From assembly GCA_033764315.1 (NCBI GenBank), contig JANRJA010000151.1:1-26878 (forward strand): 26,878 nucleotides of DNA. The letters run 5' to 3'. A program made the position numbers. Of the stretch, positions 1 through 9,000 are shown piece by piece. The DNA is from Oculatellaceae cyanobacterium bins.114 (GTDB taxonomy: Bacteria; Cyanobacteriota; Cyanobacteriia; Elainellales; Elainellaceae). Position 1 is the first letter of the stretch. Each line of letters opens with the position of its first letter.

Positions 1-3000
1 ATAATACCCGCCTCAACTGTACTTCTCCTCCAGGTAATCCACATAGGATTCTGTAGGTTCTTCGGTACCTAACTGAACGACTCCAATTAAGCTCTGAGTC
101 CAGGGATTAAGCTCAGTCAAAGAATTTACGTTTGTCTTTGTTGGACTCAGTACCAGCGTTTCCTGTTGGATTGAACTCAACAACGACTGTACTAAACGCC
201 AGCGATCGCCAATCGACAACTGTAATGCCTGATTCTGTAGCTCTTGTAACGTCATCAGCCCTTCCCCAGCAACTGGTATCTATTATAAATTGCTGTTACT
301 TCTATTACCCGAAAGTGCTTCTAGTCAAGAATTTCTGCCTAACTTTGAACATCAGCAGGTAAGCTTTCGGCTACGTCTTAACTAGTAACTGAGTGGCATA
401 ACGATTGAGATGAGCCGCCGCAAATAATCTAGAAAACCTAGCACATAACCTCTCGGCGGTCGGCTCCATCGATTTGTGTACGCCCAGCATGGGCGTGATC
501 TGATGGGGTGAAAGTCCCCTGTGGCGAAACCAGCGTCCAAATGAACCCAAAAGTTCCGAGTGACGATAACCACTAGCTTAAGGCAAGGGTGCTTCCGTGA
601 GGAAGGGTCTAGAGGAAGCCAGCGGCAAACCGACGAGCCGACGAACAGAAACGACATAGAAGGCTGAGATCTCCGGGTGAGTTGGCACAACACAACGAAA
701 CCCTTGGTTTAGGAGGCACAGTAAATGGCGCGGTTGCGGCGGGAAAGATCACGTTCTTATCTGGGGAGGTCTGTAAGGCAGCGGTTCAAGCAGCCATGGG
801 AGTCTGATTGAGGTCTATCTGGAAACGGTTAGGAAGCCACAGAACCCTAAAGTAGCAAGAACAGCCCGCCAGGAGGAAACTTCTGACGCTAAGCCTTACA
901 GAAGTCAGCCGAGTCCATAGTAGTTTCGCTGGAAACGAAGGGACGAACATGAACGAAATAAGGAGGAGCGATGAACAACTCAAACTCATCAATGAACCTG
1001 GATAGGGGAGATGAAGTTTGGCGTGCTGACAGAGAGCCAGCCTTAGTCAACCTGATGGAGCGAATCTTAGAGCGCAACAATGTCTACCAAGCATGGATAC
1101 GAGTAAGGTCAAATCGAGGTGCACCCGGCAGTGACGGGATGCCCTTAGAAGACTTTCCGGACTATGCGAAAGAGCATTGGAGAGAGATCCGCCAATCCCT
1201 GATGGACGGTAGCTACCAACCGCGCCCCGTGCGTCGTGTGGTGATTCCTAAGCCCCACGGCAAGGGAGAGCGAAAACTGGGTGTACCTTGTGTTATCGAC
1301 CGGGTGATCCAGCAAGCCATCTTACAAGTGCTCACGCCCATCTTTGACCCTGGATTTTCCGAGTCAAGTTATGGGTGCCGCCCGAAACGCTCTGCTCATG
1401 GAGCAATCCAGCAGGTGAGAATATTTGTCAAAGCGGGCTATCGGTACGTGGTGGACTTAGATCTAGAAAAATTCTTTGATACGGTCAATCACGACGTGTT
1501 GATGGCTCGTGTGGCTCAAAGAGTCACCGACAAAGTGTTGTTGCGCTTGATTGGACGTTACTTGAGGGCGGGCGTGATGGTCGGCAGCAGCCTGGAGCCA
1601 ACCGAGTTGGGAACCCCGCAAGGATCTCCCCTATCCCCCTTGATGTCCAATATCCTGTTGGATGACCTGGACAAGGAGCTAGAAGCCAGAGGACTGCGGT
1701 TTGCACGTTATGTTGATGACGTGGTGATTCTCGTCAAAAGCAGACGGGCAGGACGACGGGTGATGGTGAAAACTAGCCATTACTTGACTCAGAAGCTGAA
1801 ACTCAAGGTCAATCGTGAGAAAAGCCGAGTGGTTAAGATTGAGGAACTGGAGTACCTGGGATTTACCTTCCGAGGTATTCGGATTTTCGTGAGTGACCGC
1901 GCTATACAGAACTTCAAACACCGACTGCGACAGTTAACCTCGCGCAGTTGGGGAGTTTCAATGGCACAGCGATTCTTACGGTTAAACCGCTACTTGCGAG
2001 GGTGGATGAACTACTTTGGCATTTCCCAGCGTTACAGCCCAATCGAAGAGTTAGACGGGTGGCTGAGGCGACGGATACGAATGTGTTATTGGAAACAGTG
2101 GCGTAAACCGAGGACTCGCATCGGCAATCTGCTCAAACTCGGGACGAGTAAACGTCAGGCGATTTTGACCGGCATTAGTCGTAAAGGTTATTGGCGGTTA
2201 TCAAAAACGCTGGCAACGCATACGGGAATGACCAATGCGTGGCTCGAAGAACAGGGATTGCTATCAATTCGTAAACTCTGGATGAAAGTCCAGGGATACG
2301 CTTAGTTCATCAAGGTTGTTTGCGCGTCTTTATGAACCGCCCATTGCGGACCCGCATGATGGGTGGTGTGGGAGGGGCAGGAGAAACACCTGCCTCGACC
2401 CGATTATGCGGCGATCGCAAGGATAAGACCTGTGCGTATCCATTAAGGTACTCAATATTACCCATCGCGTCTCAACCCACTCGCTTGAACACTAAAGGGC
2501 AACCCCCATCACCCATACTTCATGGCATCCCTATTTTAGGGGTTAGCTAGTTTGAGGACTTCTTGAGTAAGTTCTTCCAACTCTCTCTGTGTTATGTTTA
2601 TGCCAAGTACCTCAAAGTTTAACCCCTCACCTCCCTCCTTCACTGAACGTTGAAGTCGGCGCACAATCCCTTTGCTTGGCACATCTTTGGGGAGAACACC
2701 GAAGATTTTTGTTCTCAGACCGTTCTTAAGATATACAAGATATTCTAGGTCACCAACAAAGATACTTGGCAATGTGCCGTCTTCAAAAAAGTCGAGGCGC
2801 TCAAGATCTATCCGCGCCTGTCCACCAAGTTCACCGAGTTTATACTCCTTGGCTACCTCTTTCTGGGCGTCCTCTAGCGTTTTATTGAACGGTTTTCCCT
2901 CCTTCAATGCCTGTAGCTTCGCACGCTCAAAGCGTTTTGATGCTATAGACTGAAGACCTGCACGCTCAACCTCGCTCACCTCGTAAATATATTTGAGGTC

Positions 3001-6000: not shown

Positions 6001-9000
6001 AACAACATCACGGGCAAAATTTGCACTATTCTTTATTGACTCTTGCTTTGAGGTGGAATAGGCAAAATCACCATGCGCTGTAATAGTCACAGTTCCATAA
6101 CTACCAGTAGCAGTGACACCTGCTTGGACACTCATATCTTCTTTGAGCGTTTTCTCTGCTTCTTTTTTGAGTTCAAATCTATCAGTTGTTTGAGTGTCCC
6201 GTTCTGTTTCTTGATTATCCTCTTCAGATGTAAATAATATGCTCTCTGTTCGATCAAGAGTGCGATGTTTTCGTTCCTTTGATTCCCCTTTTAATACATT
6301 TTCAATATGTGCAACTTCCCCTGGTACATAAGCAAGAAGCTTCTCTTTTACAACTTTAAGATCTCCAATACCAAGTGGTCGTATACGTCCACTCACATCA
6401 ACATCAGGTACATCTTCAACTACATCAAAGTCTCGATCTAGAAGATCGTTTGGAGAGAAGATAGCTAGCAATGGATTGTTTCTTGGAAAACCCCTGACAA
6501 TCCTACGAAAATCAGGATTGTCACGTAGAGCATAAGCCTGTCTTGTCAAGGCAGTAGTATGATTCTGAAGTTTTTGTATAGCATTAGGGACACTAGTGGA
6601 ATCGTTGATTCCAAGTTTAGCCAAAATTTGATTTGTATTTTCAGCCATCGAATCTGTCAATACAGTCTGAAATCGAGGTATCGAAGATAGAAAAGCATCA
6701 TTACGAGATCCCTGCTGTTCATCGCTTGTTAATGGTGTTTCACTCTGAGATATTTCTGGTTGAAACAACTCTGGAGTATTAATTCCTTCTTCCAACAAAA
6801 GCTGTGTAGAAATAATCTCCTGCATAAGGTTCTGCATAGAAATTTCTGCTTCCCCAGTAGTCTGGGTTTGAGCTAAGGAAATAACTTCTGTGGAACCTTC
6901 TGTATCCGGTCTCTCATCAGCTATTTCGTAAAATAGCTTTGCAATAACTGGTGTAGCCGTAAGTGCAGTTAGTGCATCTTCACGGCTATCTAGCATACCT
7001 TCCGCTGCTAATGAAGCAAAATGAAGTGCACGAAGCGCAACCGTCGGAATTTCAATCCTTTGAGCCGCATCGGTGCCAGTCTTGAAGCCAATGTAAAGCG
7101 CATCCCAAGCAAGCTCTTGCAATGTCTTAATACGATCTTCACTAGGGCGTGCCAACTCAGTTTGAGCTAGCATTGCTTTCGCTGTAGGTATGTTCTTTTT
7201 ATCTGTCGAAGTTTCAAAGCAATCACGGGCTTTTTCATAAACTTCAACAAGAGGTTCTAAAGGTTTAAGATCAAGTTGAGTAAATTGTTCTTTAGCCTCT
7301 TCAGAATTAACGAGAGAACGTGAAAGCTGAGTTAGATAATTAAGTCCCTCAGAGTTTTGCTCACGTTGGTCACGAATAAAATTTCGTTGAACAGTTTTTT
7401 CGGAAATGAGTTGTGTAGGTCGAACGGCTACGAACTTAAATACATCTAGCTTATTGTCTCGCTCTGTCAAACGGACTTCAACATCAGCTTCTAAGTTTTC
7501 CGGAATGTCTCTCATCTTTATTGAGCCTCTTAAGCTTTGGTATAAGGCAACACCACTTAAGGCTGTTGCTAGCGTCCCTAAACCTATAGCAATGTCGAAT
7601 TCGCTCATAAGTCCTTACATCTATTGTCTCAACCCATTGAGTACGAACTATGAATATTTCAGAGAAAGGCTTTAAGCGATAAGTTCTCCCAACTTGATCG
7701 CATTAACTTATCTAAAAATAAATTTCACGTTAACCCTACGCAATCAATTTAGTCAATTGCAGGATAGCAATCTTCACAATCAAGCCCTAACTTAGAACTC
7801 AAAGCTACCTCTTACAGATAACCTCTTACTACGTCTTAACCCAAGATTTGAGCCGCATAACTATTCTTAGACAGAAAGTTTCCGCCTAAGATCCCAAAAC
7901 CGGTGGATAGGCAAAAGGATTCAGCATAACAACCCCAATTTACTACTTATATAGATTATTTCCGCATAATACGCCGTTTAAGCTGATTCGCAAGAATCGT
8001 TCTGCCTATTTTTAGATTCCTTACGGAGATACACTGCACCTTTATGATTGTCCACCACCTAAAGTCCAAGCTTATACCTATTGGCTTATCAATATGCCAT
8101 AAAGCCCAACAGGTAAGCCTGCGGTCACGCCTACACTAAGGACTAAGCAAATTAACGGTTGTGTTTGTAAGTGCTGTTTGTATTACTCGAATGGGATTGA
8201 TCTTCTGTCGATCGCTCTTTAACCCCGATCTCATCCTTTGCCAACTCCAATGCTATAACGCAGAGTTTCTTCCTGGCGTTTGACAGCGGCTAACAGTTCA
8301 GCATTTTGCAAAATGACCCCTGCTTGATTGTTAAAGATCTGCATGTATTTCTGATCGCTGTGATCAAAGCTGGCACGAAAACAGAGGGGAATCGTCTGAT
8401 CGTCGGTAGGTTCATCTATCATTTCGGGCGATCGCCGCTTATTAATCAGTTGCGTCACGCCAATCAGTTCACCATCAGGGTTCAACACAGGCATACACAA
8501 CAGGCTATAGGTGCGATAACCGCTGCGTTGATCGGTGTTGCGGGCGGTTTCTGAGTCGGGGTGCTCATAGAGATCAAAGGGAATGTTGATGGGTTTTCCA
8601 GTTTCTGCAACTTTGCCTGCATAGCCTTCGCCAATTCGGAGGCGAATTTCTTTTTCGCTGCCGTTATCAAAGGGAATCCTCGTCCATAACTCGTTAGTGT
8701 AGCGATCGCACAACCACAACGTACTGCGATCGGCTTGCATCAATTCTTTTGCCGCTTGCATCACCCGTCTTAAGATTTCATCGGGTTCTAAGCTACTCTG
8801 GCTGACCGATCGCGTTGCTGCCATCAATGCAGCGGCAACCCGCTGCCCTCTAGCGGTTTTGTGATAGGAACAGAAGCTCTCCAAAATCATCCGAATCAGC
8901 GGCGCATTGGCGACAAATTGTTGTTCGTCAGCGGCAGTAAAGCCTTGGCGATCAACCCGCTCGGCTAAGGGCAAGGCAGAGTCACTGGTTCGTTGAAGTT

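Follow-up and report, generated by a model that had tools for sequence, protein, structure and literature searches.

Does the large unnamed gene in the 26,878-nt stretch of cyanobacterial DNA analyzed here (hereafter, the window) encode the carrier of a two-part toxin system, with the toxin-type gene behind it encoding the cargo, as a preliminary description had proposed? Both genes were found in their described places, and we refer to them as carrier and partner:

4540..7608, minus strand: carrier gene of an unnamed family, 1,022 aa from ATG 7608, with an SD-like AAGGA ahead
7471..7608, minus strand: possible 46-aa N-terminal extension of the carrier, with a mild 19-residue hydropathy (1.66) and a pLDDT of ~30 in the full model
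2536..4494, minus strand: partner gene, 652 aa, with an N-terminal helical region, a PT-TG domain and a C-terminal predicted nuclease

The 991-aa carrier described earlier corresponds to the second ATG (7515) of a frame that opens further, to 1,022 aa, and a TTG at 7470 (976 aa) is another candidate start, matching the family start at about carrier residue 47. A conserved F-x-F motif lies at most 20 residues from the N terminus in 184 of the 190 full-length carriers where it was found. The 46-aa extension is generally absent from relatives and may be untranslated. Clustered at 50%, carrier relatives number 3,742 at E ≤ 1e-3 and 2,214 at 1e-30, so that the earlier figure of 360 homologs, which rightly portrayed a widespread and unnamed family, was about 10-fold too low; a GTDB pattern search gave 546 carriers among at least 600 matches listed. 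The family spans many bacterial phyla and archaea. Its spread is patchy, with no carrier in 400 other genomes of the phylum, 40 relatives or 80 genomes of another family, and the GC3 of the window's carrier is 0.29, compared with a genome mean of 0.48 (sd 0.055). Repeated searches bore out that it has no family in Pfam (E ≤ 0.1), PHROG, PADLOC or PDB sequences and that its ESM Atlas neighbors are hypothetical clusters only; NCBIfam gave two marginal rows, nothing usable. Neither carrier nor partner has a PADLOC model. No carrier was matched among 50,697 phage records, and five loci were found in IMG/VR. A literature search, with subscription journals mostly outside its reach, returned no description of the module, and the supplements of PMC3482391 and PMC12642450 could list members.

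We then asked what accompanies the carrier in other genomes. A same-strand ORF of at least 200 aa lies within 60 nt downstream in 59 of 76 GTDB loci with a closed carrier, whereas upstream, as a control, the same criterion picks out only 12 of 76, including five apparently split carrier N-terminal halves and two Het-C partners. The median gap between carrier and partner is 12 nt (45 nt in the window), and the coupling recurs in metagenome and viral sequences (70 of 74 loci with room) and in 7/7 annotated plasmid loci. The downstream genes mostly recur beside another carrier (116 of 143) and group into 24 recurring families, which include patatin, arginine deiminase, Het-C, PLD, oxidases and nucleases. 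Pfam (E ≤ 0.01), run on all 73 downstream ORFs, assigned PT-TG to 8, patatin to 8, PAD to 7, Trypco1 to 4, Het-C to 4 (3 of them below cut-off), PLD to 3, amine oxidase to 3, OmpA to 2, and amidase, FAD/ALO and GDPD (weak) to 1 each, leaving 31 without a Pfam family. The scan of metagenome and viral loci covered 60 chosen of 108 downstream ORFs, mostly those outside known classes, and start codons of neighbors were called mechanically; where loci are high in GC, some of these frames may be wrong. The arginine deiminases, patatins, PT-TG, PLD, Het-C and amidase proteins tallied earlier were thus recovered, while LodA was absent from our samples. Carriers with a stem identity of 85–92% adjoin unrelated partners, and one partner class keeps 67% identity between loci whose carriers belong to distant subfamilies. 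Together with the coupling, this free swapping supports a two-gene module with a dedicated partner pool, and upholds the proposal of an undescribed module with a variable toxin-type partner.

The partners have kept catalytic motifs: GHxDE in 12/12 PAD proteins and HC[GA]TN in 10/12, GxSxG with DGG in patatins, and HKD in PLD. The targets of nucleases and PAD are macromolecules normally found inside cells. PT-TG, Het-C, CdiA_C and Tox-MPTase4 were found among partners or second genes, and Het-C is counted as a polymorphic toxin domain in PMC3482391. In the window, the partner carries two domains, with a hairpin beyond its stop codon:

3685..3858, minus strand: PT-TG domain, residues 213–270 (Pfam PF14449, E 5e-7, over cut-off)
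2539..3309, minus strand: predicted PD-(D/E)xK (restriction-endonuclease fold) nuclease domain, based on conserved residues
2497..2514, minus strand: terminator-like hairpin, 22 nt past the partner stop

Residues E403, E404, E407, D450, E489 and K491 of the partner are invariant in 16/16 rows, and the CdiA_C-bearing partner of locus L014 aligns with two of them, D450 and K491. The invariant residues, which we take to be a PD-(D/E)xK motif, lead us to predict from sequence a nuclease of this type at the C terminus; this domain had no match in a PDB search, and ESM Atlas leads reached only 0.75–0.77. Eight of 12 relatives of this partner lie on contigs equally long as the contig of a carrier. 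The terminator-like hairpin is suggestive by its position alone, because three such sites were found and 5.0 are expected by chance.

HMMs of 15 partner classes revealed no cross-class domain besides PT-TG, apart from one marginal row (E 0.017), and the carrier N-terminal region does not track partner class in 82 carriers. At matched core identity, N-terminal identity is near equal for same- and different-partner pairs in four of five bins, on which ground we dropped a cargo-specific N-terminal adaptor; in the top identity bin (18 vs. 19 pairs), same-partner pairs are higher in every carrier region. No fused carrier-toxin protein of more than 1,790 aa was found, which is weak evidence. The partner is indeed co-encoded and of toxin type, as the carrier/cargo proposal held, but the strict A-B sense of that proposal is weakened because no docking domain is shared and the carrier N terminus does not follow partner class. 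The same lack of shared domain and covariation, the wide range of partner lengths (about 240 to 1,650 aa) and the fact that several partners act from outside, on lipids or cell wall, would suit a carrier that is a stand-alone pore toxin, with the neighbor as a second toxin co-expressed and co-released rather than delivered through the pore. We hold this to be improbable: it leaves the nuclease and PAD partners, which make up 15 of 73 by Pfam PT-TG or PAD, without any other evident way in, and partner families remain tied to carriers.

For the architecture of the carrier, predicted models again gave the long stem and jelly roll described previously:

6409..7449, minus strand: N-terminal, mostly helical region, residues 54–400 (full model), poorly conserved
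5899..6291, minus strand: long stem hairpin, residues 440–570, rich in E/K/R/T/S, one extended hairpin in the core model
6058..6129, minus strand: amphipathic hairpin tip, residues 494–517, with its turn at Y504-G505, from alternation in the alignment
5260..5613, minus strand: jelly-roll domain, residues 666–783, from VIA matches on the core model
4543..5259, minus strand: conserved C-terminal coiled helices and alpha/beta head, residues 784–1022, from the model

The stem hairpin is ~130 residues and fixed in length, with full occupancy (1.00) across 148 rows outside the turn and a span of 142–145 aa in 180 of 182 carriers. Hydrophobic alternation of period 2 peaks at the tip (0.85, vs. at most 0.65 outside the stem), a pattern from which residues 494–517 are predicted to be a membrane-spanning beta-hairpin. 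Residues 528–547 show helical periodicity and are drawn as strand by the core model, in which the hairpin has a pLDDT of 37–51; in the full model it is disordered. A prediction of four copies of residues 408–625 returned “no answer” (score 0.00). The alignment (A3) and tree were built without L038, L058, L062 and L064 (internal stop or split), and the quick tree is used descriptively because it leaves 19 of its 69 inner branches open and brings long branches together. The fixed length and conserved amphipathic tip fit a beta-pore former. Region identities were taken from 82 labelled carriers (≥ 880 aa); among these, the N-terminal region has a mean identity of 0.18 and 0.13. It is a separate ORF in four loci (L036, L040, L050 and L065), had no clear fold match, and could be a prodomain or chaperone.

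To which pore family, then, might the carrier belong? The preliminary description had called the stem aerolysin-like, from matches of Z 2.6–4.0. Proteins of the aerolysin/ETX-MTX2/Tpp/lysenin group combine an elongated beta core with one amphipathic hairpin, long polar strands and a separate beta-rich binding domain, and the carrier likewise has a single amphipathic hairpin with long polar strands on either side. Its stem is longer and more charged than in this group, with an extra conserved helical head and a near-constant enzyme partner. The shape of a beta-pore former was retained, but aerolysin membership was not reproduced: no aerolysin-type chain was among the rows listed in five PDB fold searches, which ran on the full and core models whereas the earlier rows came from the stem folded alone, and jelly rolls and helical hairpins filled the VIA lists. 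Nor was an aerolysin-type family among the 25 of 85 Pfam families listed for 62 stems at E ≤ 10. The full model had no Foldseek match at E ≤ 0.001, and its VIA rows were helical hairpins or jelly rolls (Z < 8); those of the core model were all jelly rolls.

With the core model, Foldseek ranked the iota toxin Ib pore first, a weak match (E 6.3e-4, TM 0.12, rmsd 43), while 8yrm came fourth and CDTb twelfth, and the Ib pore was outside the VIA top 50. Binary toxin B proteins (iota Ib, CDTb, protective-antigen family; Binary_toxB_2) resemble the module in pairing a large beta-pore protein with an enzyme gene and in giving each subunit a single long hairpin whose tip is amphipathic, and tip aligns to tip in the profile comparison. 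In that comparison (hhalign), the carrier and B domain 2, represented by a template of 10 rows and low diversity, gave a probability of 8% and a score of 27.0 over 40 columns, lower than the 30.4 of the reversed control and above the best of 40 shuffles (22.7), and homology is not supported. Binary_toxB domains had no Pfam match in the carrier or stems. The binary toxin B stem is ~80 residues long, compared with ~130 in the carrier. The carrier has no sequence homology to binary toxin B and no detected signal peptide or PA14 domain, and its partners fall into at least 24 unrelated families with no common binding domain. Perforin with granzyme and streptolysin O with NADase combine a very long barrel with an enzyme that enters without a shared adaptor, and the carrier may share with MACPF/CDC proteins a helix-to-strand switch of the stem; unlike them, it has a single amphipathic hairpin, not two, and no MACPF or CDC match appeared in Pfam or among the fold rows listed. 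The module also resembles polymorphic toxin systems in joining a constant delivery part to variable toxin domains (PT-TG, CdiA_C, Het-C, Tox-MPTase4), but its toxin is a separate gene rather than a C-terminal tip, and the window has no immunity gene. The sole pore domain named in the available part of PMC3482391 is the helical W-TIP.

The jelly roll is the most variable part of the core, with a mean identity of 0.21 vs. 0.52 for the stem, and in one pair (L015/L029) a stem identity of 0.89 accompanies a jelly-roll identity of 0.32, indicating mosaicism. VIA matched it to the jelly rolls of capsid, phage cement, furin P and lectin proteins, with Z up to 9.5 (111 residues aligned at rmsd 3.1), and it likely binds a receptor or glycan. 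A phage tail-fibre-type insert is present near residue 987 in 10 loci and 28 proteins of one clade, and 5/5 inserts tested had PHROG tail-fibre matches (E 3e-9 to 2e-4). These inserts, jelly-roll matches that include phage cement and baseplate proteins, and BFVD rows with tail proteins (E 4e-5 to 1e-3, but TM ≤ 0.15) raise the alternative that the carrier is no pore and instead serves a contractile injection system or phage tail as a structural fibre, spike or adaptor. The eCIS marker Pvc16_N occurs in 24 of 50 carrier genomes, but it is missing from the other 26 and as common in kin without a carrier (24/40 and 19/80), so that dependence on eCIS is not supported. No tail genes recur nearby, the phage records gave no match and IMG/VR only the five loci noted above, an amphipathic tip would be unexpected in a spike, and the alternative strikes us as distinctly improbable.

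How would such proteins leave the cell? By a simple hydropathy and charge rule, none of 218 carriers has a signal peptide, nor has the 652-aa partner, and no immunity ORF follows the partner within the window, confirming both absences reported before. Second downstream ORFs of PT-TG loci do not cluster, and small unnamed ORFs lie behind the toxin gene in some Bacteroidota loci. No conserved secretion, tail, sensor or protease genes recur near carriers. Defence systems commonly use patatin, PLD and nucleases as effectors. A defence or programmed-death module that stays within the producer, in which carrier and enzyme kill it upon phage infection or stress, would agree with these effectors, with the missing signal peptides and immunity gene, with the patchy spread, and with Trypco1 (Pepco) behind the carrier in 4 of 73 loci, described in PMC12642450 as a beta-barrel defence effector activated by protease. 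The surroundings speak otherwise: in 25 loci, PADLOC (2023 library, 1e-12; no control set) matched only 8 of 106 near neighbors, mostly by generic domains; there was a single CRISPR locus, restriction-modification clusters were absent, and a defence-island context is not supported. As there is neither a PADLOC model nor a conserved sensor or protease nearby, and as the variable jelly roll, tail-fibre-type inserts and PT-TG point outward, we give this explanation little probability.

Taken together, carrier and swappable enzyme suggest an undescribed two-part system attacking other cells. Tentatively, and with slightly less than even confidence, we favor a horizontally transferred two-gene toxin cassette in which a predicted pore, once released, would admit the co-encoded enzyme into a predicted target cell. 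The carrier, a putative beta-pore-forming protein, would be released without a Sec signal, by lysis or another route, attach to the target surface through its variable jelly roll, and oligomerise; each subunit would refold its residues 440–570 into a single long hairpin and so contribute to a barrel of up to ~200 Å whose tip (494–517) may cross the membrane, and the enzyme, here the PT-TG nuclease, would arrive through or beside the pore. Perforin and granzyme act as a wide pore with co-release, and such an arrangement fits better than the lock-and-key threading of binary toxins because partners change freely and have no docking domain in common. For the cassette we counted the fixed hairpin and its tip, the helical periodicity of residues 528–547, the weak Ib row, the coupling, the kept motifs, the toxin domains, the normally intracellular targets of nucleases and PAD, the dedicated partner pool and the jelly-roll mosaicism. 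Against it count the low hairpin pLDDT, the Ib TM, the profile score below its reversed control, and the lack of signal peptide, secretion genes, immunity gene, shared adaptor and covariation; moreover, amidase, PLD and patatin need no cytoplasmic delivery, amine oxidase, FAD oxidase and OmpA are not obvious toxins, and many partners have no Pfam family. A bolder version, which we regard as rather unlikely, is a self-contained two-gene delivery system unrelated to known pore families, whose ~200 Å barrel, perhaps long enough to span cell wall or periplasm, would pass dozens of unrelated enzymes, sharing no loading tag, into target cells.

In archaea and many bacterial phyla, thousands of unnamed sequence clusters follow this strict two-gene grammar. 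If the pore delivers its neighbor, a widespread route would join the short list of those for protein toxins, the unnamed partner families would become candidates in a pool of new toxins, and it would be explained why soil and water bacteria carry arginine deiminases and Het-C proteins; tagless delivery through a long barrel would give polymorphic toxins a new route throughout these lineages. One family member lies on a Bacillus thuringiensis plasmid, which makes the family relevant for work on pesticidal proteins.

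The cassette of the window consists of two genes on one strand. Beyond a terminator-like hairpin, which lies 22 nt past the partner stop and belongs to a type of site no more numerous here than chance would give, a group II intron occupies the opposite strand:

4540-7608, minus strand: carrier gene, 1022 aa from the longest reading frame
2536-4494, minus strand: partner gene, 652 aa, 45 nt downstream of the carrier
591-2305, plus strand: group II intron, with Rfam D1-D4 matches at 591-755 and 865-943

The intron carries an intact 444-aa RT/maturase, and the rest of the genome has only sequences that resemble it in part; no immunity ORF was found between the intron and the partner. 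The 991 aa assigned to the carrier in the preliminary description correspond to a start at the second ATG. A longer frame exists, and the relatives, which start at about residue 47 (TTG, position 7470), match a later start, so that 1022, 991 and 976 aa are all candidate lengths. Upstream of the carrier on the same strand (8231-13640) lies a TIR_2 plus AAA_35 gene followed by an AAA_35 plus multi-GAF gene, both of host-like GC and neither among the recurrent neighbors of other carrier loci.

To assess how the carrier and its partner are coupled, we analyzed 76 closed-carrier loci from GTDB, scoring same-strand ORFs of at least 200 aa within 60 nt. Such an ORF is present downstream in 59/76 loci and upstream in 12/76, the latter including five apparently split carrier halves and two Het-C genes. 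A same-strand ORF lies close downstream in 73 of the 76 (median gap 12 nt), and the downstream coupling recurs in 70/74 metagenome and viral loci with room for it. Eight of the 12 relatives found for the window's partner sit on contigs equal in size to a carrier's contig, and three of the other four contigs are too short for both genes. Clustering of the 143 ORFs that come first downstream of a carrier gave 51 groups, of which 24 recur; for 116 of the 143, a relative adjoins another carrier. These results bear out the earlier claim that a variable toxin-type gene directly follows the carrier. The partner turns over: unrelated partners stand beside carriers with 85-92% stem identity, and one unnamed partner class retains 67% identity although its carriers belong to distant subfamilies.

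Pfam analysis of all 73 downstream ORFs (73/73) assigned eight to PT-TG, eight to patatin, seven to PAD, four each to Het-C and Trypco1, three each to PLD and amine oxidase, two to OmpA, and one each to amidase, FAD/ALO and GDPD, with none for 31; the LodA partners reported previously were not seen in our downstream-ORF samples. Catalytic motifs are retained in the PAD, patatin and PLD partners. In the window's partner, PT-TG spans residues 213-270, and the C-terminal domain has invariant E403, E404, E407, D450, E489 and K491, a set that we take to be a PD-(D/E)xK motif; we read this end of the protein as a predicted nuclease domain of that type, for which Atlas leads score below 0.8. Het-C is listed as a toxin domain in PMC3482391.

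Two unnamed partner types occur as conserved gene pairs (L002, L049, L097 and L077, L078, L131), so some cassettes comprise three genes. In Bacteroidota-type loci (L083, L084, L086, L174), a patatin gene precedes a long carrier, followed by a gene of ~700-770 aa, with Tox-MPTase4 in that of L162 and weakly in that of L086, and by small unnamed ORFs, candidates for immunity genes. A single locus has an SpvB-domain fragment of 163 aa (an N-terminus of the Tc toxin B type; L061:8338-8829) 47 nt upstream of its carrier.

Pfam, PHROGs and PADLOC assign the carrier to no family; NCBIfam gives just two marginal rows, and PDB sequences give no usable match. The conserved core of the carrier comprises residues 405-1022, within which residues 438-570 are nearly gap-free in 148 aligned sequences and the span measures 142-145 aa in 180/182. 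Hydrophobic/polar alternation in the core peaks at 494-504 and 507-515, flanking a Y-G turn, with a score of 0.85 at the hairpin tip versus at most 0.65 outside the stem; such alternation around a turn characterizes beta-hairpins that span a membrane. Positions 528-547 show helical spacing of hydrophobic residues. The full-length model leaves 466-550 disordered, and in the core model a single long hairpin runs from 442 to 568 (pLDDT 37-51), a difference that would be expected of a shape-switching segment; by arithmetic, two stem arms of ~63 residues could reach up to ~200 Å. The sequence pattern and this low-confidence model support a carrier that would act like a one-hairpin beta-pore former of no demonstrated family, and we consider a non-pore structural role distinctly improbable.

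Foldseek ranked the iota toxin Ib pore first for the carrier (E 6.3e-4) but with TM 0.12 and rmsd 43; a second Ib pore and CDTb rank lower in the same list, and a VIA fold search has none of these in its top 50. In a profile comparison with 10 sequences of binary-toxin B domain 2, the two tips aligned with each other at a score of 27.0, against 22.7 for the best of 40 column shuffles and 30.4 for the reversed profile. Given that the real score lies under the reversed control, homology to that domain is not supported and the likeness is one of pattern. Aerolysin-type chains, to which the carrier had been likened, appear in none of the fold-search rows listed for the full-length and core models; the weak match reported earlier, which came from the stem folded alone, may still hold. 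W-TIP is the sole pore domain named in the passages of PMC3482391 consulted. The layout of a pore protein with an enzyme is of an already known kind; the carrier family itself is undescribed, and search listings of the open literature showed no description.

A jelly roll occupies residues 666-783 (Z up to 9.5); it is the most variable portion of the core and appears to be swapped between close carriers. One clade (L047, L060, L061, L067, L069, L070, L071, L074, L075, L080) has a ~100-aa C-terminal insert ahead of the last strand, and 5/5 tested inserts match phage tail-fiber families in PHROGs. The L042 carrier ends in a DUF3597 domain, and those of L057, L059 and L082 in other unnamed additions.

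Based on these features, we tentatively favor pore-assisted delivery of the co-encoded enzyme, a reading that falls a little short of probable and for which we infer an oligomer, a release route, a delivery step and a target. From the earlier proposal of a two-part carrier/cargo toxin, the two-gene cassette and its variable partner stand. The simple carrier/cargo picture is weakened by several observations. PT-TG apart, no domain is common to the partner classes, and among carriers of matched core identity the N-terminal region does not vary with the class of partner. None of 218 carriers passes a simple signal-peptide rule, no secretion genes recur near carriers, and a search for fused carrier-toxin forms, weak as evidence, found none. 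Self-protection from the window's predicted nuclease is unexplained by this picture, and some partners are not obvious toxins. A carrier pore accompanied by an independent toxin is an unlikely alternative to delivery. The missing signal peptides and immunity genes, the patchy distribution and Trypco1 neighbors at four loci (PMC12642450 describes Trypco1, or Pepco, as a beta-barrel defense effector) would suit an intracellular defense role, which we likewise consider unlikely: PADLOC matches, counted without a control set, occur in only 8/106 near neighbors and are mostly generic domains. At L036, L040, L050 and L065 (around 8750-14400), the carrier is split into N-terminal and core genes followed by a Trypco1 gene, after which L036 and L040 have Het-C, not a protease.

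Dependence on a contractile injection system is not supported, the marker Pvc16_N being present in 24/50 carrier genomes versus 24/40 and 19/80 carrier-less kin. The window's genome has this marker (G000:C72:203-820), as do 18/24 genomes of its family.

The family comprises 3,742 clusters at 50% identity, and at least 546 carriers were confirmed among the 600 pattern matches listed in a GTDB scan. Its members span Actinomycetota, Bacteroidota, Chloroflexota, Acidobacteriota, Pseudomonadota, Bacillota, cyanobacteria and two archaea; all seven annotated plasmid loci examined label the carrier hypothetical in RefSeq/GenBank (7/7). The distribution of the family is patchy: no carrier was found in 400 further genomes from the phylum of the window, in 40 relatives or in 80 other genomes from one Bacteroidota family. 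Host taxa are intermixed in a quick tree. GC3 is 0.29 in the window's carrier and 0.41 in its partner (genome mean 0.48, sd 0.055), and this cassette was probably acquired recently by horizontal transfer. One cyanobacterial MAG has two carriers (L016, L017) that do not differ in the tree columns, with the PAD partner intact in L016 and fragmented in L017. Plasmid p01 of Bacillus thuringiensis HD-771 (NC_018486.1; L168:13981-18032) encodes a carrier whose core is 58% identical, together with a partner of 383 aa that belongs to an unnamed class; a member of this class at L082 has a PD..ExG nuclease-like motif.
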